A DNA stretch of 39,853 bases, taken from the NCBI RefSeq assembly GCF_004010195.1, contig NW_025214154.1, positions 1 through 39,853 on the forward strand, given 5' to 3'. The translations under genes and the position numbers were made by a program. The stretch's first letter is position 1, and every line of letters starts with the position of its first letter. Of the stretch, positions 1-27,391 are shown piece after piece. This DNA is from Chiloscyllium plagiosum (lineage: Eukaryota). The notes under the pieces were generated by a model that saw only the letters and a list, made by a program, of their open reading frames with translations, had not been told where the DNA came from and made no database searches.

Positions 1-1
1 C

Positions 2-2660: not shown

Positions 2661-2669
2661 CTCCACTTT

Positions 2670-5381: not shown

Positions 5382-5600
5382 CGTCTGCCTGCCTAAGAAT
5401 AGGAGGCCCACGCAGTAAGTGGGCTCCACTGACGCCTCAGCTAAATATATGGATGGTAAACATACAGACTTGTATATATGAATGACTAATTCCAATCTCT
5501 GTATGTAAAGAAATGCAAGGTGTGCCTATGAATGACACCACCAATTGTACAGATCATCAAAATATTTATGAATAAAGTATATTTTTGAAATTAAAAAAAA

Positions 5601-6120
5601 GGACATTGATGGGTTAGATAGAGAAAAACTTTACCCCATTGTAGAGATGTCAATAACCAGTTTTATGGTAAGGAGCAGGGGGTTCAGAGGGAATTTGAAG
5701 AAAGATTTTATTCATCCAGAGGGTGGACCTCGCTGCCTGAAAAGGGTGGTAGAGGCATGAACCCTCAAGAAACTTAAGAAGTGGAAGGGGAAAAATTTAA
5801 AAGGGACTTATAAGGGGCAACGTTTTCATGCAGAGAGTGGTGCAGGAATGGAATAAGCTGCCAGAGGAAGTGGTAGAGGCTGGTACAGTTACAACATTTT
5901 AAAGACATCTGGATGACTACATAAATAAGAAGGGTTTGGAAGGATATGGGCTAAATGTTGGCAAATCAGACTAGATTAAGCTGGATGGGTTGGACCAAAG
6001 GGTCTGTTCCTATGCTGTACAACCCCACGACTCTACAACTCTAAGTATATAACTGAGCACTTCAAGTACCACAGCATACCTGGAATACAGGATGGAAAAG
6101 GGTCTTGAACAGATTCTTGT
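5601..6120 (+). mobile_element. Nested CR1/HER1-type LINE 3' fragments
   Basis: Typical CR1 3' ORF2/UTR sequence (tggaataagctgccagaggaagtggtagaggc...ggatgggttggaccaaagggtctgtt) with an actcta-type tail at ~6030-6043, lying within an older CR1 end. Confidence 0.75.
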
Positions 6121-6421
6121 TTGATGACCATTAAGAGCCCAATTAACCAAAGGGTGGCCTTCCATGTTGTAAAAACACTATGATTTTTCATGCTTGACAG
6201 CTGATCATTCCTTTCCCTAACTGAGTCAGAAAGTTCTTGGTCATATCCCACTCACTCTCAAAGCAAGGAGAATGTTTGCCACAGAGTTCAGTCCATAAGA
6301 ACCTTCTTGTGGAATCCTTCAACATGGGGGTGGAGTGCTGCTACACTGCAGCTAAAAAGGATTCTGCCTCACCAGGATTCTTGCATTAAAAGGATTTGCA
6401 AGTTGACAGTCAACCTGTTTG

Positions 6422-6704
6422 TTGCAGTGGGAGAGGGACTCCCTGAGATTCTTGTAGAGAGAGGAGGAAAACTTCTTCAAGGCAGGCATCCTTGCAAGAG
6501 GATTCGCAGTAGGGTTAAAATCAACGAGGTAAAAACAATGACTGCAGATGCTGGAAACCCCACCCCAACCCTCCTCTAGCTTATGTCTCCACACTTCAGG
6601 CTCACTGCCTTTATTCCTGATGAAGGGCTTTTGCCCGAAACGTCGATTTCGAAGCTCCTTGGATGCTGCCTGAACTGCTGTGCTCTTCCAGCACCACTAA
6701 TCCG
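6422..6704. mobile_element. Penelope-like element fragment: inverted 5' piece plus pseudo-LTR piece, with TSD
   Basis: 6558-6704 matches the pLTR at 12230-12360. 6422-6557 is the adjacent terminal region in reverse orientation. Flanked by GTCAACCTGTTTG (6409-6421) and GTCAACTTGTTTG (6705-6717). Confidence 0.75.
6613..6648 (+). ncRNA. Minimal type I hammerhead ribozyme motif (PLE-associated), intact core
   Basis: CTGATGA (6617-6623), A, GGGC-TTTT-GCCC stem II, GAAA (6637-6640), CGTC: palindromic helix III with a GUC cleavage triplet. Confidence 0.8.
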
Positions 6705-6984
6705 GTCAACTTGTTTGGCATTCTGTGGCCATCAAGATGTGGAATGCAGCTTAAATTCAAAGAATCTGGTTCAAATGTAGGAACTCAACTGTTGCTCTAC
6801 AAGATCTCCTCAATTCCCACTGCAGGAATTTTAGCACATAATCAAGGCTAAAAAATCCAGTTAGTAAGGACTGAATGCTGGACCCTGGGGGTATTCCATC
6901 ATTCAGATGAGATGTTAAACTGAGATCTGTCTCCTGTCTGTGTAACTATCAAAAATCTATAGTACTATTCTGATAGAGACTGGG

Positions 6985-7185
6985 AAAATTCTGAAATGAA
7001 AGCAGAGAATGCCAGAAAAAGTTTGCAGGTCTGGCAGCATCTAGTGAGAGAGAGAAACAGATTAAACATTTCAAGTCCGATGTGACTCTTCTTCAGAATG
7101 TTCCAATGGACTCGAAACATTAAATCTGTTTCTTTTTCCTCAGATCCTGTCAGAACATCCAGCACTTTCTGTTTGTATTTCTTAT
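6985..7185. mobile_element. Older second PLE-type terminal fragment in fold-back arrangement
   Basis: ~6995-7078 is an imperfect inverted repeat of ~7108-7180. It contains a hammerhead-like core on the minus strand. A related tail occurs at ~18940-18995. Confidence 0.6.
7062..7099 (-). ncRNA. Degenerate hammerhead motif, second family
   Basis: Minus strand reads CTGAAGA-A-GAGTC-ACATCG-GACTT-GAAA-TGTT. The partial plus-strand copy at ~7108-7121 reads GGACTCGAAACATT. Confidence 0.6.
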
Positions 7186-9239
7186 TCCCAGAACCATAGA
7201 TTTTTGCTTGTTATAACAGGGACATGCCACCTTCTATCTCAGATAAGATTCATCATTCAACCAACCAGCAACATGCAAGCATTGTCCTGAGTATCAAATG
7301 ATTGTGTATGGGATCTTGCCATGCTCTCGTTAGCTAATGTGATCATAGCAAGCACCTGCATTTCAAAAGTACCTCATTGGTTGTAAAGTGCTTTGAGACA
7401 TTCTGAGGTCTTGGTAAGTAATACACAGCGCTTTCTTTCTATAAGTGCCCTTCCCATCCATTGTGTTGTAACTTATAATTGGGGTCTTAGAAAAGGTGTC
7501 AAACTGTCTGGATTCAACTGTGCACAGACTGGGATCAAACCTGGAGGCTCAGTTTCACTCTGAGATGTGCAATTGTTAACAGAGCCAGCTGGACTGAGCA
7601 GCACTGCAACTTTAACAGAAAGTACAGGTTCTTTCCAAATTAGTCATCCAATTATATGGATTGTCTAAATTTGTTCACATTGACTAAATTGCTGCTATTT
7701 CCATTATTTTGTTCTCCAGCCTCATTGCTACATTCCTGCACTCAGTTAACCTGTTATTGTTTTGCCTGGATAGCAAATATGTGACTGACAAACCCCTGTG
7801 AATTTTGCTTTGATTAACTCAACTGCACTGTACTATGTTTGAAATTTACTTTTCTCCATTCTCCTCACCAACCCCAGTTCTCATTTATTCTCTCCTCATC
7901 CTTTCAGTCTCGCTAATCACAAAACACGGGTGCTGACATGACCTATGTGCTGGCCTGAACCAATATGTATGTTATAATACCTTCTCAGTTGCAGGTAGGT
8001 TTTGATTATCACAGGTACATAACAAGTAGGAGCAGGAGCAGGCTATTCAGCCCCTTGAATGCTCCATCATTCAAAGAGAACATAACTAATCTAATTGTAA
8101 TCCTAATTTCACACTCCTGTTCACCCTACAGAATTCCCTTGTCGATCAACAGATCAAATATTTGCCTGAATAGCCCCCCATGGCAGAGCTTCGGCACATA
8201 ATCTACACTTACATACTGTACAAAGGGACACTTTGGTATCCCAATGGCACTATATGAAGCAAGTTAATGTTGCAGTTATTGAACCTCTGAGTCACGTTAC
8301 CTTGGAATACAGTATCCGTAAGAATGCTCTCTGCACGTTTGTAATTCTGAAATCACATTGCTGAAGGCAATTAACTCCACATACACAGTTCTGGATCACT
8401 GTACAAATCTGAATTTTTATTGAAGGTGAAGGTTTCATCCTCATGGTTGTTTCTTTGTAAGTACCTTCTACTCTTTTAGATTGTATCCAGTTGATATCCA
8501 TTGATGGCTAGTCATAATTTTGTAGGCAACAAAATACATTTGGAATTGCTCTAGACTATTGCCGTGTCCAGGCACATGATGCAAATGCCAAAGCAATGAT
8601 GTCGGAAGCCTTTCTATAACTTCCAGTCGACTTACTCAGTATAGAAGTGACAAAAGTCAAAAGTGCATGTTAGCTGATAATAACCGAACAGCAAATTAAT
8701 AATACAGATAACTTTTGAAAGTTCAAGTGAACATGAAAGGAAGAGTACATTCATTGCTCTACCTAGAGAGAGGGAGTTAAAACAATAATGGTCCTAACTG
8801 TGGGAGCTCCAGCTACCTTAATGTCATACTGCATTTCCCAACTGGAGAAAGAGCAGCTTTCATTTCCAGTAGTGTGTTATTTAAGTGTGTTGGGAATCTA
8901 TGTTTGCCCTACTCTGACTGTTTATTTTACTATGTAAATTTAAGATAGATACACAGCACCCGAGAGAGCAGAGACATTTTATTTTTTTCTCTGAGAAGGG
9001 TAAATATTTTAAATTTCAAGATACCTTTCTCTACAATTATACTATTGATGGCTACTTAGTAAAGAAAGAAGCTGCAGCCAGTCTTTACTTGAAATAGATT
9101 AATTCACAGAATGAAACATTACTGGTATATATCTCTGCTCCTGTGTCAGTATGTATCTCTATATATCTGCTCAAGTGACTATCCAATCAATGTGCTATAC
9201 GCGTACATAATTAACGTCAAGTGACACAGTTACAGTTTT

Positions 9240-9700
9240 CAGGAATCCTTTCTCCACTCAGAGGGTGGGGAGAATGTGGAACACACTACCTGGAATGGTA
9301 GTTGAGGCCAGAAACCTTTTAAAAAGTATTTGGATGAGCACTTGAGATGTCATAACATTCAAGGTTATGGGCCTAGTGCAGGACAGTAAGACTAGTGTGG
9401 GTATTAATATATTTTTGGTGGTACAGATGTGATGAGTCAAATGGCTTCCTGTACTGTATGATTCTATGAGCTTGCAACCCATAAAGCCCTAGGTAGGCGA
9501 TTTATTTTATCAAATAGAATTAACCAGTTCCACATTATGGCTAAGCACTATGGATGCATACAGCGTGAATGATTTCAAAGCGGGAACTGGACATTAACTT
9601 GAGGATGAGCAAATTACAGTTACAAGAAAGGCTGCTCTTGAGACTGTAAGAACATGCTTGATGGGCCAAATGGCATAATTCTGTAATGTAAATCTCTATG
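9240..9700 (+). mobile_element. Two old CR1-type 3' end fragments
   Basis: cactcagagggtggggagaatgtggaacacactacctgga...atggcttcctgtactgtatgattctatga, and a second end near 9650-9700. Confidence 0.6.
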
Positions 9701-10019
9701 TTTCCACAAAACTTGTGTCAAACTGGATAACTGACAGCCAGAAGAATGAACATTTATCAAGTACCTTTAAGTAAAGAAAATGTGCTCCACAGAAGTGATA
9801 TTAGACATTAATTGACATGAAGGGGAGTTAGGCCAACTGAAGAACTGTCAAGTGCATCTAGAATACTATCTACACCCTAACAATTGGATTGTATCTGATT
9901 CAGCACATGCTGAGTGTGGATATTGAGGATTAATTTGAATGGGGCTGCTTTTCATTATCTCAGATGAATCTCCCTAACCATGCAGGAGCTTCTGCAGAGG
10001 AAGGACCAACAAGAGTGAT

Positions 10020-10655
10020 CATGAATTGTTTCAGGAGATGCAAGTGTCACTGGCAGGGGCAGTGTTTTTTGCTCATCCTTAATTGCCCTTGAGAAGGTGG
10101 TCTTGAGCTGCCTTGTTGAGCCTCTGAAGGCTGTATGGTGAATGTACATGGACAGTGCTGTTAGAGAGGAAGTTCTGGGATCTTGACTCAACAACAGTGT
10201 AGGGTATGATTCCAAATCAGGATGGTATGTGGCTTGGAGCCAAAACTTCCAGTGGTGCTGTTCCTGTTACGTATTTTCTATCCTTGACCTTCAAGATGGT
10301 AGAGGTCACAGGATTCGAAGGTGCTTTTGAAGGACCCTTGGCAAGCTGCTATAGTGCGTTTTCAGAATGGTACATCCCTCCTAACACAGTGTGGAGGGAG
10401 TGAATGTGTAACTTAGTGGATAGGTTGCTGAGTAAGCTGGCTGCTCTGTCCTGGATGGTGTCGAGCTTCTTGAGAGTCATTGGAACTGCATTCAGCCAGG
10501 CAGCTGGAGACCATTCTATCTTACTGTTGTCTTGTGTCTTGTAGATGGTGGACAGACATGGGGAATCAGTAGGTGAGTGACACACCTCAGGACTCCTAGG
10601 CTGTTCCAGCACTTGTAACCACTGTATTGATTAGCCAATCCAGTTCTGTTTCTGG
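10020..10655 (-). mobile_element. CR1-group LINE (second family) ORF2 C-terminus and 3' end; resumes at 12362-~12500 after the PLE insertion
   Basis: Minus ORF IYKTQDNSKIEWSPAAWLNAVPMTLKKLDTIQDRAASLL resembles a post-RT LINE region. Related sequence occurs at 17345-17720 (-), 18380-18680 (+) and ~34200-34440. Confidence 0.65.
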
Positions 10656-10724
10656 GCAAAAGTGAGGACTGCAGAGTTTAGATCAGAAAGCACAGCAGGT
10701 CAGGTAGCATCCGAGGAGCAGGAA

Positions 10725-10760
10725 AAGCGACGTTTTGGGCAAAAGCCCTTCATCAGGAAT
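10725..10760 (-). ncRNA. Hammerhead motif with GAAA mutated to AAAA (probably inactive)
   Basis: Minus strand reads ATTC-CTGATGA-A-GGGC-TTTT-GCCC-AAAA-CGTC. Confidence 0.65.
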
Positions 10761-11047
10761 AGAGGCAGGAAGCGTCCAGAGTGGAGAGATAAATGGGGGG
10801 TGGGGAGGTTGGGGGCTGGGGAGAAGGTAGCAAAGAGTACAATAGGTGAATGGGGGTGGAGATGGACGTGATAGGTCAGAGAGGAGGGTGAGGGAAGGTA
10901 GCAAAGAGTACAATAGGAGAATGGGGGTGGGGATGGAGGTGATAGGTCAAAGGGGATGGCGGAGTGGATAGGTGGAAAGGAAGATAGGCAGGTAGTACAA
11001 GTTAATGAGGAAACTGGTGAAGTCCACATTGATGCCCTGGGGTTGAA

Positions 11048-11228
11048 GGTTAGGTGGATCAGTCATGCTAAATTGCTCATGGTGTTCAGGGGTGTGTAGG
11101 TTAGGTGCATTGGCCAGGGGTAAATGTAATGGGGTAGGGGATTGGGTCAGGGTGGGTTACTCTACGGAGCGTTCGTGTGGACTTGTTGGGCCGAAGGGCC
11201 TGCTGCCAGACTGTAGGGAATCTATGAG
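11048..11228 (+). mobile_element. HE1-type SINE 3' half, within the PLE
   Basis: Reverse-complement match to 14167-14330; ends in tagggaatctatga next to the assembly gap. Confidence 0.75.
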
Positions 11229-11424
11229 NNNNNNNNNNNNNNNNNNNNNNNNNNNNNNNNNNNNNNNNNNNNNNNNNNNNNNNNNNNNNNNNNNNNNNNN
11301 NNNNNNNNNNNNNNNNNNNNNNNNNNNNNNNNNNNNNNNNNNNNNNNNNNNNNNNNNNNNNNNNNNNNNNNNNNNNNNNNNNNNNNNNNNNNNNNNNNNN
11401 NNNNNNNNNNNNNNNNNNNNNNNN
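11229..11424. other. Assembly gap (196 N)
   Basis: Run of n characters. Confidence 1.
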
Positions 11425-12090
11425 TATAAAGAAGGAGGCCATCTGGTGTGTTCTGTGGTAGAACTGGTCCTCCTGGAAGCAGATACGGCCGAGGCGGAGG
11501 TATTGGGAATCGGGAAGTCATTTTTGAAGGAGGTAGGGTGGGATGACGTGTTATCCAGTTAGCTGTGGGAGCCGGTGAGATTGTAAAAAATGTCAGTGTC
11601 AAGTCGGTCAAGATGGAGATGGAGAGGTCCAGGAACGGGAGAGAGGTGTCAGAGATGGTCCAGGTGAATTTAAGGTCGGGGTGGAATGTGTTGGTGAAGC
11701 TGATGAACTGCTCAACCTCCTCGCGGGAGCACGAGGTGGCGCCGATGCAGTCATCAATGTAGCAGAGGAAGACGTGGGGAGTGGTGCCAGTGTAACTACG
11801 GAAGATGGACTGTTCTACATAGCCGACAAAAGAGACAGGCATAGCTGGGGCCCATATGGGTGCCCATGGCTACCCCTTTGGTCTGGAGGAAGTGGGAGGA
11901 TTCGAAGGACCAGTTCAGCCAAACGAATGAGAGTGTCGGTGGAAGGGTACTGTTGGGGATGTCGGGAGAGGAAGAAACAGAGGGCTTGGAGGCCCTGGTC
12001 ATGGCGGATGGAGGTGTAGAGGGATTGGATGTCCATGGTGAAGATGAGGCCTTAGGGGCCAGGGAAACGGAAGTCTTGGAGGAGGTGGAG
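11425..12090 (-). pseudogene. PLE reverse transcriptase remnant (probably Neptune-like)
   Basis: MDIQSLYTSI, FLQTKGVAMGTHMGPSYACLF, YIDD (11750-11761), HPDLKFTW and LPFLDLSI motifs spread over three frames. Confidence 0.88.
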
Positions 12091-12285
12091 AGCTTAGCAC
12101 TGTCCTCATGACCTGTCCTACCTGCCAATCTCCCTTCCCACCTATCTGCTCCACCTTCCCCTCTGACCTATACCTCCATCCCCACCCCCATTCACGTACT
12201 GTACTCTTTGCTACCTTCTCCCCAGCCCCAACGCCCCCACCCCCGCCCCCCATTTATCTCTTCACTCTGGACGCTTCCTGCCTCT

Positions 12286-12321
12286 ATTCCTGATGAAGGG
12301 CTTTTGCCCGAAACATCGATT
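12286..12321 (+). ncRNA. Hammerhead motif (AUC variant)
   Basis: CTGATGA (12290-12296), A, GGGC-TTTT-GCCC, GAAA, CATC. Confidence 0.72.
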
Positions 12322-13174
12322 TTCCTGCTCCTCGGATGCTGCCTGACCTGCTGTGCTTACTCAGTTCTGTTTCTGGTCCCCTTCAGGATGTTGCTGATAG
12401 CAGGATTCAATGATGATGATACTATTAATGTCAAAGGGAGATCTTTAGAGTCTCTCTTGTTAGAGATCATCATTAGCACTTGTGTGGCCAAATAATATTT
12501 AAATTTAAATTCCATTGGTTGTAATGGTGAAATTTGAACCTATGTCCCCAAAACATTAGCTTAGGCCTCTCAATTAGTAGCCAATAAATATTTTGCAATT
12601 TAGGTAGGTTTTTAAACAAAATTATGGCACCTTTCAGGTGGTAACCTTGAAGGATGCCTTTAAGGATTGCTGGCTGAGTCTCTGATTGGCAGATTTACTG
12701 ACCATAAGATGTAAAAGCAAGCTGTTGTCAGTCCGAGTCCAATATCACAAAGGGCCTAAAACAGACGTTAGGTTCCAGAGTTGCCTATGCAGTTAACATG
12801 AACAATTCTGGATGCTTAGGAAGCAGACCAAATAAATACAGGGATGATGTACATCAAATACTAGCTCAGCACATACACACTACCGCCATGTTGAACATTT
12901 TATCCTATGCAATGGGAGCAGGCCCATTCACCTTCTAGATCAATTTTTTCAGTGACAGCAGTTGATGCAGAACTCAAATGAAGATTGAGACAAGCAGATA
13001 GCCTCAGTTTTTCTTCCCCCTCGCACCCCCTGAAGATTTAAAGGTTATTTTAGAGTCTTACTAAGGAGGAGGACTATTCTGTGGTAAGGAAACTGGAGTG
13101 GTAACTGTATGATTAGATATTCCATGTCCTCTGTCAAATTATAAGACCTACTTTACTGAAAAGAAAGAGCAAGA

Positions 13175-13530
13175 ACAGAGGAAGTGATAGAGGCAAGTAC
13201 AATTACAACATTTAAAAAGCATTTGGACAGGTACATGGATAAGAAAAGTTTAGAGGGATTTGGGCCAAATACAGGCAGTTTAGTTTAGGAAACCTGATCA
13301 GCATGGACAAGTTGGGCCGAAGGGCATGCTTCCATGCTGTATGCCTCTATAACATAGGAAATAGAAGCAGGAGTAGGCCATTCGGCCCATTGGGCATGCT
13401 CTGTCATTCAATAACACCATAGCTGATCTGGCTGTGACCTCAATTTCACTTTCCGAAGCTGACCCCTAACCGGGGACTTCCTTATGGATCAAAAATCTGT
13501 CTAACTTCACCTTGAATATAGACAAAGACT
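13175..13530. mobile_element. Tail-to-tail CR1-type 3' fragments (+ 13175-13352; - 13353-13530)
   Basis: agaggaagtgatagaggcaagtacaattacaacatttaaaaagcatttgga...gggccgaaggg, then ataggaaatagaagcaggagtaggccattcggccc. Confidence 0.65.
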
Positions 13531-14061
13531 CTGAAATGCAATGAGGCACCTTTTTAATTTTTTTGATAGCACTTTTAAAATGGCTATATAAATAGGATTC
13601 ACAGTTTATTGCAAGTAGGAAAGCTGCCAAAAATAACAACAATAATTACAAACTATAATGCTTATGTGCAGTCTTCCTGATATTCAGTTTTTATTCCCTG
13701 AATTCAGGTCAGAAAGTTAATCAGAATCAACAGTAACTAAATTTATTTTAGGGTCAAAGGCTTGGAATCAGAAAAGTTGTATAGTTGATAAAATAATTTT
13801 GAAATACATGTATGCAATATTTAAGTCATGAAGAATTGTATTGTTAAAAGGTGTTGATGTGCATCATTTGACTTGCTATCAGCATTTCTTCCCTTGCAGA
13901 GTTTGTTTAGCTATCTCTAGTGAATAAAAGGGGGCTAAAGTTGAACTCTATGTGAACCTGGCAATTGGTATGAGTGAGATGCACCCTCACTATAAACAGG
14001 GAAAGCATCATTGCAGAAAGCACTCAGTCATTGATGACGTTCCAGGTTTTAGTCAGCATCA

Positions 14062-14785
14062 CCCATGGCTTAGTGTGTAGCACAGTTGCCTCTGAGTCAC
14101 AGATTCTGGGACCAGATCCCACTCCTTTCCAGGGGTTGAGTGCAAAAGTCAAGATTGACAATCTCTTAGAATCCCTACAGTATGGAAATAGGTCCTTCAG
14201 CCCAACAAGTCCACACCAACCCTCTGAAGAGTATCCCACCCAAACCCATTCCTCTACATTTACCCCTGACGAGTGCACCTAACCTGCACACCCCTGAACA
14301 TTATGGGGCAATTCAGCTTGGCCAATTCATCTTTGGATTGTGGGAGGAAACCAGAGCACCAGGAGGAAAACCAGGCAGACACGGGGAGAATGTGCAAACT
14401 CCACACAGACAGTCACCTGAGGATGGAATCAAACCCAGGTCCCTGGCGTTGTGAGGCAGCAGTGCTAACCACTGAGCCACCATTCTGCCCTGTTAGTGCT
14501 GCACTGTTGGAGATGTGGCCTTGCAGGTGAGGTGTTAAACTAAAGCCCCTTCTGCTAGTTTAGGTACATGGGAACTGACCAACATTTATCCCTCACTCAA
14601 CATCTCTGAAGCAAATTATCTTGCCAATATTGTATTGCAGCTTGTGGGAGCTTGCTGTGCAAAATTGGCCACTGAATTTCCCACATTACAACAGTGATTA
14701 TATTTCAAACACATTTCATTGACTGTAAAGCGCTTTGAAGCATCTTGTCATTGTGAAAAGAGCTAAATAAATACAAGGTTTTATT
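14062..14785 (+). mobile_element. DeuSINE (SacSINE1-like) split by the HE1 insertion
   Basis: tRNA-like head at 14062-14160. Deu-like body and tail at 14491-14785 (aacatttatccctca...tgtgggagcttgctgtgcaaaattggc...cattgactgtaaagcgctttg). Confidence 0.72.
14167..14490 (-). mobile_element. Near full-length HE1-type (V-SINE) tRNA-derived SINE
   Basis: Minus strand has an A box TGGCTCAGTGG, a B box GGTTTGATTCC, a V-domain-like gtttgcacattctccccgtgtctg segment and a CR1-like tail ending tagggattcta. Confidence 0.88.
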
Positions 14786-14799
14786 TACAAAAAATGTAT

Positions 14800-15110
14800 T
14801 TCGATAGTGTCTTTCTTGCCCTTAGTATGACCCCAGATACATCATGTGCCAATTAAGTATTTTTGATGGGTAGTCACTGTTATAATTTGTGCAGGTTCCT
14901 ACAAATAGAATCAAGGTGGATGACCAGATAATCTGTTTTAATTCTGTTATTAAGATTAATGTTGGCTAAGCCACTGAAAGAATCCATCATACTGCACATA
15001 TCCTGCTTCTTAGCATAGTTTGTTCAAATCTTTCGCACTCATCTGAGGGGCACAGGTAGCCTTGGTTCACTGTTTCCTCTGAAAGGTGGTGCCACCAACA
15101 CTCCCACAAT
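14800..15110 (-). mobile_element. Old DeuSINE-like relic
   Basis: Reverse-complement similarity to 14491-14785 (tgaccagataatctgtttt...ctgagggg...ccttggtt). Confidence 0.55.
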
Positions 15111-15357
15111 GCGATAAATTTATCTTGAATCACTGGGGTGGTTTCAGGACCAATATTCCTGCCCTACCAGTGGTGAAGGACATCTTACTGTGGATTGGAC
15201 ATGTCTTCAAGCAGAGAATTGAAGAGAAGGTGATGTTTAGATCAAGTGGTCAGTCTGTCGAAAAAGACTATCTGGTTTCACTCCGACTTTGGAATTTGTC
15301 TATTCGAGCACTAAATTAAAAGCAGGGTTTGTGGCACTACTTGATACAATTGAACAG

Positions 15358-15956
15358 TAGAGTCATAGAGTAAGAGAGAGTTTCCAGCAGAGCAACAGAC
15401 CCTTCAGTCCATCCCGTCCATGCTGACCAGATATCCCAAATTAATCTAATCCTATTTGCCAGCAGTTGGCCCAAATCCATCTAAACTCTTCCTATTCATA
15501 TACCCATCCAAATGCCTTTTAAATGTTGTACTTGTACCAGCCACCATCACGTCCTCTAGCAACTCATTCCATAGATGCATCACCCTCTGTGTGAAAAGGT
15601 TGCCCCTTCAGGTCCCTTTTAAATATTTTCCCTCTCACTGTAAACCTATACCTTCTAGTTCTGGATTCCCCCACTCCAGGGAAAAGACCTTGTCTATTTA
15701 CCCTATCCATGCCCCTCATGGTGTTATAAACATCTATAAAGTCACCCTTTAGCCTTGACATTCCAGGGAAAACAGCCCCAGTCTATTCAGCCTCTCCCGA
15801 TGTCTCAAACCTTTCAACCCTGGCAACATCCTTGTAAATTCTTTTTTGAACCCTTTCAAGTTTCACAACTTCCTTCCTATAGGAAGGAGATCAGAATTGC
15901 ACACAATATTCCAAAAGTGGCCTAATCAATGTCCTGTACAGCCGCAACATGACCTT
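15358..15956 (-). mobile_element. CR1/HER1 LINE 3' fragment
   Basis: RLKGDFIDVYNTMRGMDRVNRQGLFP translation, tagagtcatagag tail, and strong similarity to 38965-39555. Confidence 0.88.
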
Positions 15957-16078
15957 GTTGAGTTGAGGTGAGGGAGAAATTGAGCACTATTGCAAGAGGC
16001 AAATAGCCTCATTTTAGTAATGGATAGAATAAGGCTTTAAAGTATGCCTCAGGGTAAAAGCAAACATCCAGGTTTGCT

Positions 16079-16222
16079 CCACCCCTCTCCCATTTCTCTC
16101 TCAGCCTCCTTGGGCCACCTCCTCATTCCTGATGAAGAGCTTATGCTCGAAACATCGATCCTCCTGGTCCTCGGATGCTATCTGACCAGCTGTGCTTTTC
16201 CAGCACCCCACTCTTTGACTTT
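16079..16222 (+). mobile_element. PLE pseudo-LTR fragment
   Basis: Similar to 12240-12360. Confidence 0.72.
16125..16160 (+). ncRNA. Hammerhead motif with covarying stem II
   Basis: CTGATGA (16129-16135), A, GAGC-TTAT-GCTC, GAAA (16149-16152), CATC. Confidence 0.75.
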
Positions 16223-16649
16223 TGTCTGAACTAGCCTCAGGAGGTGGCTAGGGAAAGGGTGTCAATAGCATTTTTATTGTGAGATTTGGAGAATGGAAAT
16301 ATTGTCCCATGTGGGGGTGGCTTGGGTTTATATACAATGGTTTCTCTGGTCTCTGTAGCTTCCAGCAGCTCCAAGCCTGCCCAGATACTGCATTTGTCAA
16401 TTCTAGCCTTTTCAGCAAACACGATTAAATCTCATGTTTGAATTAATCCACTATGAGTGGTCAAACTTGTTTGAGCAAATTTTCAGCCAATCAGCAAGGA
16501 TGTTTAGCAGTTCAGCATACCGGTGTTATGGAATGCGACATGGTTCAATCTCACACTGAGACCTATTCATGAAGATTTCACCGAAGTCAGTTATTCAGAA
16601 GAAGCAAACATGGATGGACATAACTGACCAGAAACCAGTATTAGCCATC

Positions 16650-17030
16650 TCAGCTATGACCCCCAGTTGATAGCACTCTCACCACCGAGTCAGAAAACTG
16701 TTGGGAGGTTAAGTGGGTTTAAGAGCAAAATATCTATGCTGACTCAACAGTGCGGTACCAAGCAAGCCTTCACTGTCAGAGGTACTGTCTTTCCAGTGAC
16801 ATGCTGGACCATTTGCCTTTTTGGATAGTGACAAAGGATCCTGTGACAATGTTTTGACATGGAAACAGAGGTATTCTGTTTGGTGTCTTGACCAACATTC
16901 ATCCCTGGAATAACATCACTACAGTAGATCAACTGGTCTTTGCATTATTATTATGGGAGCTTTCTGTTCACTAATTGTCTTTTACATTTTGTAAATTGGC
17001 TACACTTTAAAAAGTTCTTCATTCAAACGA
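16650..17030 (+). mobile_element. Old DeuSINE-like relic
   Basis: tagcactctcaccaccgagtcagaa head followed by cactgtcagaggtactgtcttt, accaacattcatccct and gggagcttt blocks. Confidence 0.55.
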
Positions 17031-17432
17031 GGTTTGGATAAGTGTTTTTGAAGGAAAATAATTTAATGAGTAATGGTGAATACAGGGGAGTGGAATTAAT
17101 TGAATAGTTCCACCATAGACATGATGGCTGAATGGCTAATGCAGACTGACTCAGGTACTGTGTGATTATAGTATTGTCAGAGGTATCAACAACACCCCAT
17201 GGTGATCTTTCAAAGATCCGGGGTGTTATCTCCAGTGTCTTGTCAGTGTTTGTCCCACTCTAAACATCATAAAAACACAGATGATATAGTCATTATCACA
17301 TTGTTTTTCCTCCTGAAAGTATGCCATACCTAATTCGCTAATATTTAATGCACATCCCTAATGGCACTTGAGAAGGTGGTAGTGAGCTGCCTTCTTGAAA
17401 CCCTGCAGTAATCTGATGTTGGTAGACTCACA

Positions 17433-17680
17433 GTGCTCTCAGAGAGGATTTTGATCTGACGACACTGAAGAAAGTATGGTATAATTCTGAGTCTGAATGG
17501 TATTTGACTTGGAGGGAATCTTGCAAGCAGTGGTTGTAGAGGTCTCGGGTTTGGGGGTGCTCTCAGAGAGGATTTTGATCTGACGACACTGAAGGAAGTA
17601 TGGTATAATTCTGAGTCTGAATGGTATTTGACTTGGAGGGAATCTTGCAAGCAGTGGTTGTAGAGGTCTCGGGTTTGGGA
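17433..17680. repeat. 124-bp tandem duplication inside a LINE relic
   Basis: 17433-17556 and 17557-17680 are identical except for about 2 positions. Confidence 0.95.
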
Positions 17681-19579
17681 AATAATGTTGAAGGTGCCTT
17701 GGTGAGTTGCTGTGTATCTTACGTTACAACAGTGACAACGTTTCATTAACAATTAGCTGCAAAATCCTTTAGGAGGGCCTAAGGTTGTGAGGGGTGTGAT
17801 ATAAATGTAGACTCTTTATTTTGTTAATCCTCTCAAAACAAGAGAGAAAGCTCCCATAATGTACTTGTGCAAACCTTTTGGGCAGATTACACAATCTGAA
17901 TCTGAATCTGAAACAAGCACTTACTAAATGTAAAAAAAAGCTCCAACAGTTAAATATCTGAGAATGTGAGGCTCTTCTGGAAAAATATTTTCTGTTGACC
18001 AGCCAGGCAGACTGGTGGATGGGTTCCAAGTCATCTGGAATCAGGGACACTCAGATCTTTAAAGATTTGGCTCACTGCTCCTGCATTAATGAGCTATCTG
18101 TTCCCTGATCCAAACTAGAGGCTTTGGTCTATTTTCACAGGCCAACAAGGGTTGCCCTAGTGTCATCAAACAAGAATCAACAGAACAAATTCCCCTTTTA
18201 AGGCACCAACAAATGTAAGGAAGGAATGAATGGGAGAATCAACCTAAACATTTCCCACCCAAAGCACAATAAAACTCTCAATAAAAGCAAATGGTAGCTT
18301 CTGAACTGAACCATCATGTTGTTCTTTGTGTTATTTCATCCACCATCTTTAACACTCATTTTCTCCACTACTGGTACAGTATGTCTGCATTGTGAGCCAT
18401 TTACCAGAAACAGTGCAGCCATGTGTCAAACTCCTTTGCCAGTTTCTTTCAGACCTGTGACTTCTACCACCTAAGAGGACAAGGGCATGAGAACAACACC
18501 ACCTGCAATTTCCCCTCCAAACCACACACCATCCTGACTTGGAACATTTAGGTGATGCTCGGTCAAAACCTCCCTCCCTAGCAGCACTGTGGGAGTACCT
18601 ATGCCATAAAAACTACAGGAAGGTAGCTGCCTCCACCTTCTCAAGTTCAACTGGGGTTGAACACATGTTATAACCTGTAGTGCCCAACAATCAATAAAGG
18701 CCTGATGCATACCATCAAGAGTTTGGAACGGAAGGGGGAATTGCACGGTATTAACAACACAGAAACAGGCAAACAGCCCAACCAGTCTTGGGTGTGCTTT
18801 GAAGGTGGGCATGAGGAAATTACTGACATAATAGAAGCCTCTAAAGACCAGTGGATACCACAGGGGCTAGGATGAACCAACATCCTTAACAATGACATTT
18901 TGATACAATTTTGAAGAGTTAAATCCGTTAATTGCTTCTATCCCCAGATGCTACCAGACCTGCTGAGTTTCTCCATTACTTTCTGTTTTTATTTCAGCTT
19001 GAAATACACAGCGAGTGGTTTGGGTCTGGAAAGCACTGCCTGTATGATTATAAGTAGGGTCAATGAGGGAATTGAAACTGAGAAAAAATATACAGAGGAA
19101 AGGTGCGGAGTGGCTCGACGTGAATTGCTCCCTCAGAGCCAGCACAGCTATGATAGACTGACTGGCCTCTTTCTGTTCTGTAACAAATCGGTGATTATAT
19201 TTTGGTCAAAACAGATGACCTAGCACTTGTCCTGCTGCTGTCTGTGGGATCTTGCTATGCACAAACTACCTGCTGCCTTTCCTGCTTCCAACAGCAATTG
19301 TAACTCATTGGCCGCAGTATATCCTGTGAAAGGTGCTATGCAAATGAAGGTCTTCATTTTCTGCTGCATCCACACAAGGAATTAAGGGATAAGGGGACAG
19401 TGTGGGTAAGTGGTGTTGAAATGCCCATCAGCCATGATTGAATGGCAGAGTGGACTCGATGGGCCAAATGGCCTTACTTCCACTCCTATTTCTCGCCTCA
19501 TCCAGCACCCCCCTCCCCCACACACACACACCTGTATCTAGCCCTTTGGGATTTTCCTCCTCACTTTTGATCATAGGAT

Positions 19580-19868
19580 GAACAGCCAGGGAAGGCAAGT
19601 CCACAACAGGACATAGGTTTAGGGTGAGAGGGGCAAGGTTTAAAAGGGACCTGTGGGACAACTTTTTCACTCAGAGGGTGGTGCGTGTATGGAATGAGCT
19701 GCCAGAGAAAGTGGTACAATTACAACATTAAAAAGGCATTTGGATGGGTATATGAATAGGAAGAGTTTAGAGGGATAAGGGCCAAACGCTGGCAAATGGG
19801 ACGAGATAGGATATCTGGACGAGTTGGACCGAAGGGTCAGTTTCCATGCTTGTACGGCTCGATGATTC
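19580..19868 (+). mobile_element. CR1/HER1 3' fragment
   Basis: ggacataggtttagggtgagaggggcaagg...tggaatgagctgccagag...ttggaccgaagggtc. Confidence 0.8.
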
Positions 19869-19869
19869 A

Positions 19870-22800
19870 TTCCCGCCTCTCTCCTACGCTGCTTCGCAGG
19901 ACTACTGTGCCCAGAGTGCTTTTCAAGGAGACTGTCTTGTGCAACTCACTGGCGCACACCCATCCATTCCCTGTCCCTCTCCCCTCCCCATTGCGATCAC
20001 CGTGGTACCGGCCTCCCTGCTTGACGTGATGCCGGAGCTGCCCTATGGAGACCGAGCTGAGTGGTTCAGCTCCGCCTGCTGCTCAGGAAGCTGTAGGCTG
20101 ATGTTAATGTAGTCGGCACGATTCAGGGGGAGAGAGAGTGAGTGAGTGAGACACACAACGCAGACACACACAGAATTACCAGCAGCTGCTCGCTCAGGGT
20201 AGCAAGCCGTGGAATGAACTTGTCGGAGACTTGAGAAGGGTAGTAACAGTAGCAATAGTCCGTTACTCTACTCCAAAGTGGATTTTAAGCCTGAGCGAAC
20301 ATTGCAAGATGCTGCTGGTCTCTCAGCGGGTTGAAGCACCTCGCATGGAGCAGCACATCTCGGTGAGTACAATCCCCCAACTTGCCTTTTATTTTAAAAA
20401 AAAATCTTCCGCACCGGCTTGTCTGCTGCTCAGGTCAATTTGAAGATTGAAAGAAAGAGAATCGGATGAGAGAGGAAAAGAGAGAGTGGGAGAGAGAGAG
20501 AGAGAGACTGATCCTGTGTAGTTAGAAATCTCCGAAGAACAGTAAGAGCCGAGAGGGCTAAACAGAATCCCTTTAGAAAGCAGCATCGCGTCGTGGATAA
20601 CCAGAATTAATCCAGACTGAGGGAGTTTGTCGTTCGTATGATTTTTTTTTAAAAAGCAGTGAAATCTCAATAGGTTCGTCCAGCATCAGCTCCCCCCGGG
20701 GGGCACTCTCTCCAGTGACAATCACTAAATGTTGCGAAAGATGTGTGTGTGTCTGTATAAATATATTTCCTGTTTTTGTCTATTGTGATCCATCTCGGCG
20801 TCTGGCACCTTGTAGTTTATCTGTGTAATTAATAATCTGTTAGCAGCTTCCGATTCAAGAACAGGCGGGGGAGAAGAAACTGCAGGCTGGTTTATCCAGG
20901 ATTAGGAATGGCTGCGCAGGGATTAAAGAGGATTTTATTATTTTTGAAACTAGCAATAAACTCTTGTTCTATAAACATTGCTTTTGTGTCGCCCTCGCTC
21001 AGTCACTCACCCTCTCAATCACTCTCTCTCTAGTTTGGGGATGTGTATTGGCCAGAGAATTTTTTTTCCCTTTTTTTTGAAAATGTGGTTGATTTTGAAG
21101 GAGCCAGCAACAAGCTCCTCTTTGTCTCTCGTTATCAGTGGGGTGTCATCAGTGTCTGAGGCGGACAGGTTACCTGGGGAGAAACGATCACGAAGAAGAT
21201 TTAAATGCCTTTTTTAAAGGAACGAAGGCTTCTAGTTCGTTCTAAATTTCCTGGCGCGCTCACACACTCTCGAGAAGGGATGCGTTTTGTTGTCAAACTG
21301 CAGCGGCGTCTAGCTCTTATTGTTGTGTATTAGGATCGTATGCAATTGGTGTTTTTTTTTAAGAAAGCAAATTGTGTGTGTGTTTGATATGGTCAGTTGA
21401 TCTTGGGTTGTGAAGTTGAATAAGGACGTGGTGGGAAGATCATTCTGACCCAAGAATACTGGATTAACTTCGGTTTGATTTCTCATTTTCACACAAGAAA
21501 ATCATTGTTGCAGATGTGTGTTTTTTTTTCAAATAGAAACGGGCCAGTGTTTGTTGTTAACTCCTGTCGTCCATTGGTTCTCGGTTGTAACATTTCAGCA
21601 CAGATTTTTTTTCTCTTGTGTAGCTAAAGAGGGCTGGACTGAGAGGGTGGGGGGAGGGAGGGAGCCGGGCTGTGTTTAAATCTTCCGAAACTTGTGGATC
21701 GGGAACAGGAGGAGACACACGCAGAGAGAGAGAGAGAAAAAAATCGCCCTCCTTATTACAGCGAAGGGGAAGCAGCGTTTAGTGTGCGGCTGGTGGCGGG
21801 CCTCTGGTATCTGTGTGGGGCTGGGTTTATGATAATGAAGTTTGCAAATGGCCTGCACTCTCGGAGCCGCGGAATATTGAGTCACCCAGATTAAAGTTGG
21901 AGAAGTGAACACTTATTCATTCAGCGAGGTGACGGCGGGGGGAGTTGCGCTGTTTCCGTGCAGAGTGCCCTTGAATGTACGTCACATTTACTCTGGCTCC
22001 CAGGAAACCGAGCAGAATGGGAGCTCAGAGCTGAAGGAGGTGGCCCCAGAAATAACAATCACAGAAAACCTGAGGCAGTGTTTCAAAACATTCTCCCTCT
22101 CCCCTCCTCCCTCTCCTTTTTAAAAAATATCCTCTTGGCTCCCTACATGTTTTGAATCACAGCCCTAGGAACCGAGAGTGTGAGGTTTTCTCTTTGATCT
22201 TTATTTGGGAGCTAATTCCAATTTTGTTCTCTGTTTCAAAAAGAGATTGCAATCATTTGCAAGATGATTTTTTTATGCCTATACATATTGTAAAGAACGC
22301 CCCCGGGATGTAAAGAGGGCCTGTGAAATGTACTGACAAGTACATAATGCAATCTGAATTTGCTGATATTTCATATTACCGCCCAGTTATTGCTGAGGGC
22401 ACTCCAGCTATTGTGTCTTTAAAGTGAGCAGGCTTCAGTGTCTGAGTCTGAAGTGCTGAGAGATGTAGGCCTATCGAAAAGGCAGGTTACAGAGGGGTGG
22501 AAGGGAGTTACATTCTGATTTCATATTTTAAAGGGAGGAAGCTTTCAGTCTCTCTCTCTGGTGAGTTCCATATCCTGTATTGCTCTAGCTTTACATTAAG
22601 CATTGGAACCGCTCACTGCAGCATATGGGCCCCGAAGTGGAGAGGAGGCTGGCATGGCCTTGAACCTAACTGGGCAGCTGTTTCCTGCCATCACAGGGAA
22701 CATGTGAGGTTCCATTGAAGGATGGCAGCCGGGCTCGGACGAATATTGGCTGGACTCAGGGGGTAGAGGGAGCCTGGGCTCTGGTCTTGTGCGTGGGAAG

Positions 22801-23200
22801 TAACGATGCACTGACTGAATGCAACTCCAATTTAGGAAGCATGACTTTTACTTATTTTTTAAAAAAGTAATGTTTTCCTGCTGACGTGCATGGCAGGGTT
22901 GTGTGGGTTGGAAACGTCACTGATCTTCCAAAGGCTTTAGGCGGAAGTATGTCTCCAGTGTATTCGAGTCAGTGTCTGGCAGTGTCAATGTTTCCTCTTG
23001 TTTGTGTCACATCTCGAGTTGCCCCATTTACAGCACAGCAGATAGATCCTCGCTCTCCGCGCAGATATGATCGCTCACTCGGTATTTTTAGTGACGAAAT
23101 CTCAACCGTGGCTTTAAACCGATCCCAACCCCTTTCAAGGGTCAGTACTTAATTGCATAACGACGCCCGGTCAAAGGGCAGTCATTTGTGAACTGCCATA
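19870..23200. promoter_or_regulatory. CpG-enriched, TE-free promoter/first-exon region
   Basis: CpG density is visibly above the flanks, no repeat relics were recognised, a CRE-like TGACGTGA lies at 20022-20029, and GA/CA microsatellites are present. Confidence 0.6.
20309..20362 (+). CDS. Candidate first coding exon (MLLVSQRVEAPRMEQHIS, phase 0) of an unidentified host gene
   Basis: ATG with A at -3 (aagATG), 18 open codons and a consensus donor CG|GTGAGT at 20363-20368, inside the CpG-rich region. The exon could instead be non-coding. Confidence 0.45.
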
Positions 23201-23398
23201 AAGGGATTATTATGGTGTTTCAAACAGGATCTAGAATGTGTGCGGTTTAAGATATATTCCCATGTTTGGGCCAACCATGATGCGTCGCTTTCACTTCTTC
23301 TGCCTTGGGTGCTGCAGACACATTCGCCTGTATTGTCTTCAAATGTATCATGGAGCAATGTTTGTTTTCTCTACACGAATAACAATCTATCCAGTATT

Positions 23399-23449
23399 TT
23401 GGATTAGTGGTGCTGGAAGAGCACAGCAGTTCAGGTAGCATCTTTACCT
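23399..23449 (-). mobile_element. 51-bp PLE terminal mini-insertion with 15-bp TSD
   Basis: Reverse complement of 6662-6703, flanked by AATCTATCCAGTATT at 23384-23398 and 23450-23464. Confidence 0.8.
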
Positions 23450-23759
23450 AATCTATCCAGTATTACTGCTTTTTTGCTTTGCTCTTATTGAGTGGTAATT
23501 TGCCTCTGAAAATCCTTGCCTATGGCAAGATTCTAGATTTTAGTGATAATGTTCCTGTGAAGCATCTTGCAACATTAAAAGGCGCCAAATAAATGTACAT
23601 CACACACTCGCAACAAATAAGTTCATTGTCATAACAGTGGCAGGAAAACGCCGCGCTACTTATTTATCCAGAGGTACACTGGCATTCTCTGGAATTGGTC
23701 ACGTGGGAACTTCTCCAACCCACTAATCATCAGAAGTCTAACAATAATTGAGTACCTGA

Positions 23760-24017
23760 ACTATCTGTTCATATCTCTGTACCTCAGGCATTGCAACATG
23801 ACAGTGTCAGTCTGGACTATCTGTTCATATGTGTCCTCTAGACAATGCAACATTGCAGTATCAGTCTGGACTATCTGTTCATATCTCTGTACCTCTGACA
23901 GTGTCAGTCTGGACTACCTGTTCATATGTGTCCCTTAGACAGTGCAACATGACAGTATCAGTCTGGACTATCTGTTCATATCTCTGTACCTCAGACAGTG
24001 CAACATGACAGTGTCAG
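23760..24017. repeat. Minisatellite, five ~54-56 bp units alternating A/B, SINE-derived
   Basis: Unit actatctgttcatatctctgtacctcagacagtgcaacatgacagtgtcagtctgg. Units 1, 3 and 5 carry ctctgtacc; units 2 and 4 carry gtgtcc. Unit 3 has an internal deletion. Confidence 0.9.
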
Positions 24018-24024
24018 GATTGGG

Positions 24025-24267
24025 TACAAATAAGGACTGCAGATGCTGGACACCAGAGTCTAGATTAGAGTGGTGCTGAAAAAGCACAGCAGGTCAGGCA
24101 GCATCCAAGGAGCAGGAGTCTGGACTACCTGTTCATATCTACTTGTTCAGGTAGTGTAGACTGACACTGTCATGTTTGAGATTGTGGTACTGGAAAAACA
24201 CAGCAGGTCAGGTATCATCTGAGGAGTAGAAGAATCAACGTTTCGGGCATAAGCCCTTCCTCAGGAA
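24025..24267 (-). mobile_element. Two PLE terminal fragments (~24025-24116 and ~24177-24267) embedded in the minisatellite
   Basis: ggactgcagatgctgga...cacagcaggtcaggcagcatcc matches 10660-10725. Confidence 0.8.
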
Positions 24268-24268
24268 G
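24233..24268 (-). ncRNA. Hammerhead motif (CUGAGGA, GUU variant)
   Basis: Minus strand reads TTC-CTGAGGA-A-GGGC-TTAT-GCCC-GAAA-CGTT-GAT. Confidence 0.75.
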
Positions 24269-24610
24269 GTACAGATATGAACAGGTAGTCCAGGCTGACA
24301 TTGTCGTGTTGCACTGTCTGAGGGACAGTTGTTTCCATGAGACATTAAACTTGAGGCCCCCTCTCTCCTTTGAATACGTGTAAAAGTTGGTATGGCACTC
24401 ATTCAGTAAAGGGCTTGGGAGTTCTTGATACCTTCAAACCACATCACTAAAGTATTATCTACTCATTAATACATTATTGATTGTGGGATTTTTTTTTGCT
24501 GTGTGCAGTTTCCTACATTACAACACATGTCTACATTTCAAAAGTACTTAATTAGTTGTAAAGTGTTTTGGGAGAAGAGGCTATGAGAAACTCTATATGA
24601 AGTGAATTTT
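24268..24610 (+). mobile_element. DeuSINE-like element whose 5' part equals an inverted minisatellite unit
   Basis: ccaggctgaca...gttgcactgtctgagg...atgagacattaaacttgaggcccc...tttcctacattacaaca...gttgtaaagtgttttggga. Confidence 0.7.
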
Positions 24611-27089: not shown

Positions 27090-27391
27090 AGGCGAAAGTG
27101 AGCACTACAGATGCTGGAGATTAGAGTCAATATTAGAGTGGTGCTGGAAATGCACAGCATGTCAGGCAACATCCGAGGAGCAGGAAAATCGACGTTTCGG
27201 GCTGTGCATTTCCAGCACCACTCTAATCTCAACTTTATATGTAAGTAGCTGAAAATGTGTTGGTGGAAAAGCGCAGCAGGTCAGGGCATGAGTCCGATTC
27301 TCCTGTTCCTTTGATGCTGCCTGACCTGCTGCGCTTTTCCAGCAACACATTTTCAGCTCTGATCTCCAGCATCTGCAGTCCTCACTTTCTC
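27090..27391. mobile_element. Two adjacent fold-back PLE terminal insertions
   Basis: Hairpin 27132-27158/27201-27227 and hairpin 27247-27283/27321-27358. A target-like repeat occurs at 27080, 27233 and 27392. A truncated hammerhead half (cccgaaacgtcg, minus strand) lies at ~27190-27201. Confidence 0.8.

Follow-up and report, generated by a model that had tools for sequence, protein, structure and literature searches.

Minimal type I hammerhead motifs of Penelope-like elements in a shark, probably inert where they sit

Minimal hammerhead RNAs (min-HHRs) were described in the pseudo-LTRs (pLTRs) of metazoan Penelope-like elements (PLEs) by Cervera and De la Pena (2014, PMC4209133), whose species list is without any shark. 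A stretch of 39,853 nucleotides of Chiloscyllium plagiosum DNA, here called the window, was found to hold five motifs that agree with min-HHRs in the type I order and the CUGANGA core, in the extra base between positions 9 and 10.1, in the G10.1-C11.1 pair and in the palindromic 15.2-16.2 with no loop 3. The two also agree in genomic habit; they are mostly solo truncated copies, form opposite-strand pairs and occur in both pLTR contexts (PMC4209133). The published consensus was matched, and the Acropora digitifera PLE example was nearly identical, sharing both CGUC and the 5' arm of stem II with the window motifs (PMC4209133). In contrast, helix I has 2 contiguous pairs in the window motifs, versus 3 in the published descriptor. 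The motifs are of an already known kind, the Penelope pLTR minimal hammerhead, and are a new member of it in a shark family, mildly notable just for how weak helix I is and how abundant the family is.

Further similarities were found to other PLE-associated systems. The small PLE hammerhead variants of Lunse, Weinberg and Breaker (RNA Biol, PMC5785218), as a review (PMC6765202) describes them, share the very short palindromic stem III, the PLE association and cleavage as a dimer, which is predicted here. Insertions of endonuclease-bearing PLEs of the Penelope/Poseidon type (Craig et al. 2021, PMC8557442) share 5' truncation, an inverted truncated copy at the 5' end, a one-sided tail, a reverse transcriptase (RT) followed by GIY-YIG, and a pLTR hammerhead, although the window holds remnants only and the likeness is one of insertion features, not of a tree. 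Animal non-LTR retrozymes, reported in one chondrichthyan genome, also carry a PLE-derived type I hammerhead (PMC7229834; bioRxiv 10.64898/2026.07.22.740005). Unlike retrozymes, which are head-to-tail tandem units, the window copies are tied to PLE coding remnants, and no tandem array overlapped a motif in the window. A retrozyme and a conserved amniote intronic hammerhead were both rejected as identities because tandem units and a real helix III are lacking and because the 6617 insertion is seemingly absent from a related organism.

A pattern scan placed C3 of the CUGANGA core at 6617(+), 10756(-), 12290(+), 16129(+) and 24264(-), which confirmed the five positions of the initial annotation; four copies were clean and one (10756) had a dead core. 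The half copy noted near 27195 was recovered too; its first element, from 27202(-), is the 3' arm of stem II. The variants named for stem II, the loop, the free core position and the decay changes were correct. The clean scan, which required the core, a stem II of at least 4 bp and a helix I of at least 2 bp, gave 4 matches in the window versus a mean and a maximum of 0 in 30 dinucleotide shuffles. When one core mismatch was allowed, 5 matches were found (10756 being gained) versus a mean of 0.6 and a maximum of 2 in 8 shuffles. Bare CUGANGA was not enriched in the window (34 versus 27.3 +/- 5.2). The five motifs are real copies of a small hammerhead RNA motif known from the end repeats of PLEs. 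They derive from four insertion events, which corrects the earlier set of five, and are scattered, broken insertions in shark-type DNA.

The best preserved copy spans 6613-6648(+), with the core at 6617, stem II at 6625-6628/6633-6636, GAAA at 6637-6640 and the ACGU palindrome at 6640-6643; its helix I consists of 2 bp, a U.U and an A-U. C6644 is position 17 of this motif, and the predicted cut falls directly after it. The copy at 10725-10760(-) lies in a 3' pLTR and is dead, with G12>A, a helix I broken at 1.2 and N17 at 10729. The helix III palindrome is broken (ACAU) in the copy at 12286-12321(+), which lies in an inverted arm (12094-12361). Helix III is likewise broken (ACAU) at 16125-16160(+); this copy, the sole one of the five with an A-U pair in stem II, lies in a solo pLTR fragment that has diverged (about 16082-16214). 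The copy at 24233-24267(-) has N7=G and a helix I of 2 bp only, and it is less intact than was initially stated because position 17 is U and its fragment breaks off 3 nt upstream of the core. The half copy (27137-27202, minus strand), located at a foldback junction, comprises the 3' arm of stem II, GAAA, ACGUC and the tail, without CUGANGA. GAAA-NN-UH, the CUGANGA core and a stem II of 3-7 bp were exact in four of the five copies, with G12>A in the other, and all five had the extra base after A9 and the G10.1-C11.1 pair. With no loop 3, the palindromic 15.1-16.1 was ACGU in three of the five full copies and in the half copy, and ACAU, at a CpG, in two; the earlier statement that helix III is the ACGU palindrome only held.

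The 6617 copy sits in a pLTR fragment with the common 3' tail (6560-6704, plus strand), next to an inverted piece of the same Penelope element (6422-6559, minus strand) that contains the pLTR tail end, the 5' leader and the first 23 ORF codons, with the ATG at 6489. A target-site duplication of 13 nt with 1 mismatch flanks the insertion (6409-6421 on the plus strand and 6705-6717). All of the first 23 residues were identical to the N-terminus of the RT-bearing protein P0205 (source name Chiloscyllium punctatum), and the opposite-strand 6559/6703 joint was present in 22 and 33 DNA contigs and in 84 RNA reads. The 10756(-) and 12290(+) copies are the two arms of a single 5'-truncated Penelope insertion with its 3' end inverted (10658-12361, with an assembly gap at 11229-11424), arranged around an RT and GIY-YIG remnant and flanked by a 17-nt target duplication with 1 mismatch (10641-10657 / 12362-12378). 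The frameshifted RT remnant (11428-12093, minus strand) gave a tblastn E of 1e-74 to P0121, a protein with RVT_1 whose relatives P0127, P0129 and P0130 have GIY-YIG. The C-terminus of the GIY-YIG endonuclease region was recognized at 11001-11048(-), with 81% over 16 aa to residues 438-453 of P0127 (E 0.004). The order is that of a PLE, RT and then GIY-YIG, with the GIY-YIG core itself missing or within the assembly gap. Both insertions combine 5' truncation, an inverted end and a target duplication; no convincing target duplication was found for 16129 and 24264, and no full-length Penelope element within the window. In intact order the ORF starts about 135 nt downstream of the motif, and the endonuclease ends about 270 nt upstream of it. 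From the ORF start beside 6617 and the RT and GIY-YIG before 10756 it follows that the motif both precedes the start codon and trails the endonuclease, in agreement with the 2014 description. A Stegostoma gene model of the RT/GIY-YIG type ends in the reading frame of the motif (P0130 residues 509-516). The coding remnants and the ORF start thus establish the Penelope link that the initial annotation had drawn.

CpG decay, proposed earlier for the changes outside stem II, loop and free position, accounted for all four core, helix III and N17 changes, which lie at CpG columns (G12>A in 10756, G16.2>A in 12290 and 16129, and C17>U in 24264), but not for the change at 1.2 in 10756, which is non-CpG and breaks helix I. 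Four of the five copies carry CpG-type damage, and the CpG o/e of the window is 0.33. Non-CpG changes affected 1 of 65 cells in the core and helix I, whereas the 3' tail had 18 of 185 (Fisher p 0.03, from five copies that are not independent). Family-wide, among the best-supported within-motif differences listed, the top two were at the free position 7 (295 of 896 RNA reads) and in loop 2 (317 of 1023). The core is exactly the catalytic consensus, and the positions that vary are those where hammerheads tolerate any base.

The expectation of a very large number of motifs was borne out, as 44,304 and 53,375 assembly contigs (contigs, not copies) of two DNA runs matched one 501-nt stretch. The motif density of 5 in 39.7 kb suggests, when extrapolated from this one window, a copy number far above the 4,000-9,000 counted in coelacanth and Xenopus (PMC4209133). 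A contig from organism A crosses the right junction of the 6617 insertion with 0 differences, and a contig from organism B ceases to match at 6705 but continues for about 400 letters, as expected of an empty site. The 6617 insertion therefore looks young and seems to be absent from a related organism.

We put the probability at about 0.88 that these are minimal type I hammerheads in the pLTR of an endonuclease-bearing Penelope-like element of a shark, whose likely role was to cleave, as dimers, the RNA of the element itself, with the five copies as probably inert leftovers of truncated insertions. Motif position, target duplications, inverted ends and CpG damage were read directly from the DNA; the dimer step is carried over from published work. 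The motifs of the two pLTRs of a full element would join by their ACGU palindromes to form a double hammerhead, which would cut after C17 to give unit-length RNA for reverse transcription. Reverse transcription would begin at the 3' end and usually halt early, so that most genomic copies would be partnerless, decaying solo pLTR scraps.

The initial annotation had suggested that 6617 and 24264 could cleave transcripts that read through them. The best copies (6617, perhaps 24264) might be active in place, cutting host or read-through transcripts alone or paired in cis or trans, a reading to which we give very little credence. The 6617 copy does retain every core base and the ACGU palindrome in an insertion that looks young, and RNA of the family exists from both strands, with 2019 reads among about 2% of one run. 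However, 6617 and 24264 lie on opposite strands, the closest copies on their own strands, at distances of 5.7 and 13.5 kb, carry damage in helix III or the core, and within 40 kb no intact partner shares the strand of 6617. Tandem motif pairs were absent from the window, where same-strand spacing was 3.8-13.5 kb. In one poly(A) RNA run, zero reads fell on the unique flank of the insertion (6723-6900), which is weak evidence, and no read ends piled up at C6644 in a library ill-suited for cleavage ends; a sequencing-run search listed no RNA run as holder. Energetics also argue against activity in place. In all five copies the monomer hammerhead fold was less stable than the minimum fold, by 2.4-7.9 kcal/mol, the monomer preferred a fold that buries the core (and that A at position 7, the common form in the family, weakens), RNAalifold favoured a core-burying helix over helix I, and the helix III duplex amounted to just -1.7 kcal/mol and helix I to +1.4. 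Counting against the dimer step in the preferred reading, the cofold minimum of two 6617 copies was not the double hammerhead, by nearest-neighbour energies that omit core tertiary contacts. Published monomers showed no cleavage and published dimers were weak, with no product in 8/9 Xenopus dimers. No host exon was recognized by Pfam among 138 open frames of at least 55 aa outside masked repeats, a search that short exons would escape; one weak match (E 0.007, below the cutoff) was rejected. With no tandem pair, no intact partner and no flank reads or end pile-up, host read-through cleavage is unsupported; the five copies are likely inert where they sit, and nothing here suggests a host function for them. 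It is similarly improbable that dispersed copies of a young family with a 2-bp helix I, in long introns or in different transcripts, pair by way of the ACGU palindrome and cleave RNA as it is made. If they did, the carpet-shark retroelement load (about one motif per 8 kb) would be a genome-wide source of RNA breaks, and selection would thin RNA-cutting copies by strand and CpG decay.

Helix I, with 2 contiguous pairs, then a U.U and at most one A-U, is a feature that the initial annotation had missed. The 3-7 contiguous pairs of the strict RNAmotif descriptor were found in 0/5 copies, so all five escape it, and the family is grouped with 2-bp variants printed as PLE hammerheads for Drosophila virilis, Culex and Oikopleura, which escape it too (PMC4209133). 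Because helix I is below the published 3-bp minimum in every copy, even full elements of this family may carry a ribozyme that works poorly or not at all. The motif could even be a vestige or have another job, with self-cleavage gone in full elements also; we regard this as unlikely, though it deserves more weight than activity in place. Candidate jobs include protein binding, a pLTR promoter or intron signal, and a template-switch hotspot. Of 30 distinct metagenome motifs, 22 had at least 3 contiguous helix I pairs, truncation and inversion junctions cluster at the motif edges (loose ends at 6613 occurred in hundreds of contigs and reads), and Cervera and De la Pena admit non-cleavage functions (PMC4209133). 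Against a vestige stand the exact catalytic consensus of the core, the variation at hammerhead-free positions, the printed 2-bp motifs and the U.U after two pairs, which recurs in 3/30 unrelated metagenome motifs. That a common repeat merely happens to contain this hairpin, with its stem II double change due to drift or DNA-level hairpin correction, appears most improbable of all. The stem II covariation claimed within the five copies was not significant, being one pair in one copy that 101/500 shuffles matched; this single event has a drift probability of about 0.01-0.2, depending on the assumed divergence. Chance can explain that double change but not the motif, whose chance origin is already refuted by the absence of matches in 30 shuffles, its place in both pLTR contexts and the published consensus. 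A search for stem II coupling in spurious shark gene models through the motif gave no usable matches, the single match being chance. Across unrelated motifs with a common core, stem covariation is strong; with stem II unconstrained, a stem of at least 4 bp was found in 21/30 distinct metagenome motifs versus a shuffle mean of 1.3. These come from 39 metagenome loci that inform architecture only, as the search pattern derived from the window's own core; with no BLAST match to the window and no PLE protein match in 300-nt flanks, the loci lie outside the shark family. The family pattern had 0 matches in prokaryote genomes, and a looser one had 1, unrelated, in viral contigs. The Rfam check proposed earlier gave no hammerhead match in the window, even at E 10, nor in 6560-6720, which could favour a chance hairpin, but Rfam at E 1 likewise missed 20/20 of the similar loci (20 of the 39), so the blank is uninformative.

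The Penelope reading extends the 2014 min-HHR finding to a shark family and shows that standard searches undercount PLE hammerheads with a short helix I. Naiad PLEs thrive without hammerheads, so the role in transposition is itself putative, and the motif would gain weight if the shark family proved to cleave. Being young and very abundant, and with its two pLTR contexts established, the family is good material for testing what PLE hammerheads do in vivo. The window also contains a sixth motif, absent from the initial annotation, which is a decayed minimal hammerhead of a second family (7061-7096, minus strand) with a 5-bp stem II, a lost helix I and an inverted half copy at about 7108-7135.

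The minimal type I hammerhead motifs claimed in the initial annotation were all found, at 6617(+), 10756(-), 12290(+), 16129(+) and 24264(-), each named here by C3 of its CUGANGA core, together with a half copy starting at 27202(-). The sequence variants described for them were correct, and C6644, the proposed cut position, is position 17 of the 6617 copy. When the window was scanned with a descriptor specifying the core, a stem II of at least 4 bp and a helix I of at least 2 bp, four motifs were recovered compared to none in 30 dinucleotide shuffles, and with one core mismatch permitted there were five, where 8 shuffles averaged 0.6. The bare core heptamer was not enriched in the window (34 vs 27.3). 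Pairwise BLAST placed the copies in a single repeat family, 80-90% alike over 66-212 nt. All four changes at G12, G16.2 and C17 fell on CpG columns, in agreement with the suggested CpG-type damage; hammerhead positions are numbered, and G12 is assigned its role, as in PMC4209133 and PMC6155905 and as is customary. The observation is real and the motifs are rightly identified, as members of a kind that is already known.

Around the 6617 motif is an insertion of 283 nt (6422-6704), flanked by a 13-nt duplication. The translation of its inverted part is identical to the N-terminal 23 residues of P0205, a shark Penelope ORF of full length, and contigs and reads from other copies showed an opposite-strand joint between 6703 and 6559. 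From this joint we infer that the cut site of an intact element would lie ~135 nt upstream of the start codon. The insertion at 10658-12361, which has a 17-nt duplication (one mismatch) on both sides, contains a frameshifted reverse transcriptase (12093 to 11428, minus strand; E 1e-74 to the protein P0121) whose best named homologs were from Chiloscyllium, Rhincodon and Stegostoma, with GIY-YIG present in three RT homologs, and a GIY-YIG C-terminal region (11048-11001, minus strand; E 0.004). The 10756 motif lies 3' of this remnant, ~270 nt downstream of the endonuclease match, and the RT is broken off at 12093, where it adjoins an inverted 3'-end copy containing the 12290 motif; the two motifs are a single insertion and point away from each other. 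With an ORF start near 6617 and an endonuclease before 10756, the motif therefore occurs ahead of the ORF as well as behind the endonuclease, which bears out the proposed origin in the pseudo-LTR (pLTR) of a Penelope-like element (PLE). The published PLE scheme has the same two motif positions (PMC4209133 and PMC8557442), and a Stegostoma gene model bearing GIY-YIG (P0130) terminates in the motif's own frame. The origin of the best named RT homologs makes a carpet shark the probable host. Another short repeat at 11050-11228, with an inverted relative at 14163-14305, breaks the endonuclease region beside an assembly gap (11229-11424). A protein with the source label Proteus mirabilis (P0038; contig of 474 nt), 79% identical to the window RT, is probably host DNA contamination.

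In two DNA sequencing runs, 44,304 and 53,375 contigs matched 6400-6900 at 82% likeness, and these counts, which are of contigs and not of copies, indicate a very large family, as had been supposed. The unique flank of this region was found in single contigs only, at depth 6-11. A contig from the organism of one run spanned the right junction of the 6617 insertion with zero differences, and one contig from the organism of the other run matched only from 6705, followed by ~400 non-matching letters, which suggests an empty site and a young insertion.

The stem II covariation proposed for these copies was not significant among them: a two-sided change was limited to pair 10.2-11.2 in copy 16129 alone. 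This single change was equalled in 101 of 500 shuffles, and drift by itself yields it with a probability of ~0.01-0.2; it may mark a subfamily. Better evidence of constraint came from three other comparisons. Non-CpG changes occurred in 1/65 cells of the core and helix I vs 18/185 of the tail (p 0.03, with non-independent copies). Among the best 40 of the 102 rows of the read table, the two family-wide differences with most support within 6613-6649 were one at position 7, which is free to vary, and one in loop 2. A metagenome scan that kept the motif's core and left stem II free gave 39 loci; of their 30 distinct inner sequences, 21 had at least four stem II pairs vs a shuffle mean of 1.3; none of the 39 loci belonged to the window's repeat family. 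Paired copies of one minimal hammerhead were seen on the same strand of metagenome contigs, 0.9-4.8 kb apart (L005/L006, L036/L037 and L003/L013), a spacing that fits the expectation for two pLTRs of one element.

Helix I had at most two contiguous pairs in all copies, followed by U.U and, in three of five, one A-U pair. The published min-HHR descriptor demands three helix I pairs (PMC4209133) and recovered 0/5 copies when applied to the window. The same paper lists motifs with a two-pair helix I from D. virilis, Culex and Oikopleura. The Rfam search suggested as a check returned no hammerhead in the window, nor in any of the 20 metagenome loci searched. Stem II formed in folding, with pair probabilities of 0.44-1.0 depending on context, but the hammerhead-shaped monomer was less stable than the minimum fold by 2.4-7.9 kcal/mol. 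In that minimum fold, the core of four of the five copies was paired to a CGUCG stretch. This core/CGUCG pairing was noted at 6610-6645 and in other copies, and an A at position 7, the common family variant, abolishes one of its pairs.

Judging from the literature, the motif would most likely be functional only within the full element, where two pLTR motifs would dimerise and cut after C17, freeing RNA for retrotransposition. The window's copies are probably truncated by-products undergoing CpG decay (probability about 0.88). The weak helix I makes a real rival of the idea that the motif is a non-cleaving vestige even within full elements, which we consider rather improbable and which overlaps with the claim that the window's copies are inert. 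A double hammerhead consists of two motifs in one RNA joined through ACGU. The plus-strand partners of 6617 are 5.7 and 9.5 kb off and both carry ACAU, and the minus-strand partner of 24264 is 13.5 kb off and has both the G12>A change and a disrupted helix I. No recognisable exon was found among 138 open frames, a search that short exons would escape. In a poly(A) single-cell run sampled at ~2%, 2019 reads fell on the family, on both strands and spanning the cut site, with none on 6723-6900 and no pile-up of read ends anywhere; the RNA result is weak evidence because such a library shows 5'-OH ends poorly. With damaged same-strand partners, no exon and no end pile-up, the suggestion that 6617 and 24264 cleave read-through transcripts found no support, and cutting of host RNA by motifs at these loci is very unlikely. 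In earlier assays, minimal monomers failed to cleave and dimers showed weak activity (PMC4209133), and 8/9 Xenopus dimer elements were without product (bioRxiv 10.64898/2026.07.22.740005).

A literature search on hammerhead ribozymes of Penelope elements in sharks, of Chiloscyllium and of elasmobranchs, which covered few subscription papers, turned up no description of the family. The bioRxiv study has one chondrichthyan in its sampling and may include shark motifs. Other papers drawn on were PMC6765202, PMC6466107 and PMC7229834.

Other features were seen in the window. A second-family minimal hammerhead at 7096(-) (7061-7135), with a 5-bp stem II and without helix I, is joined to an inverted half copy, and together they form one long hairpin. 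At 23745-24330, tandem units of 54-97 nt alternate with three Penelope tail fragments, among which the 24264 motif lies, and one unit is inverted (24273-24327). Penelope tails also form a nested foldback with an 11-nt flanking duplication at 27091-27391; the 27137-27222 hairpin gave a weak score with a miRNA model, which was attributed to chance. A decayed LINE occupies 1-5300, with a ZCCHC3-like RNA-binding domain, zinc knuckle, AP endonuclease and RT, and its ZCCHC3-like domain and zinc knuckle are duplicated at a spacing of 543 nt. Finally, a near-perfect (99%) tandem duplication of 124 nt is present at 17433-17679.
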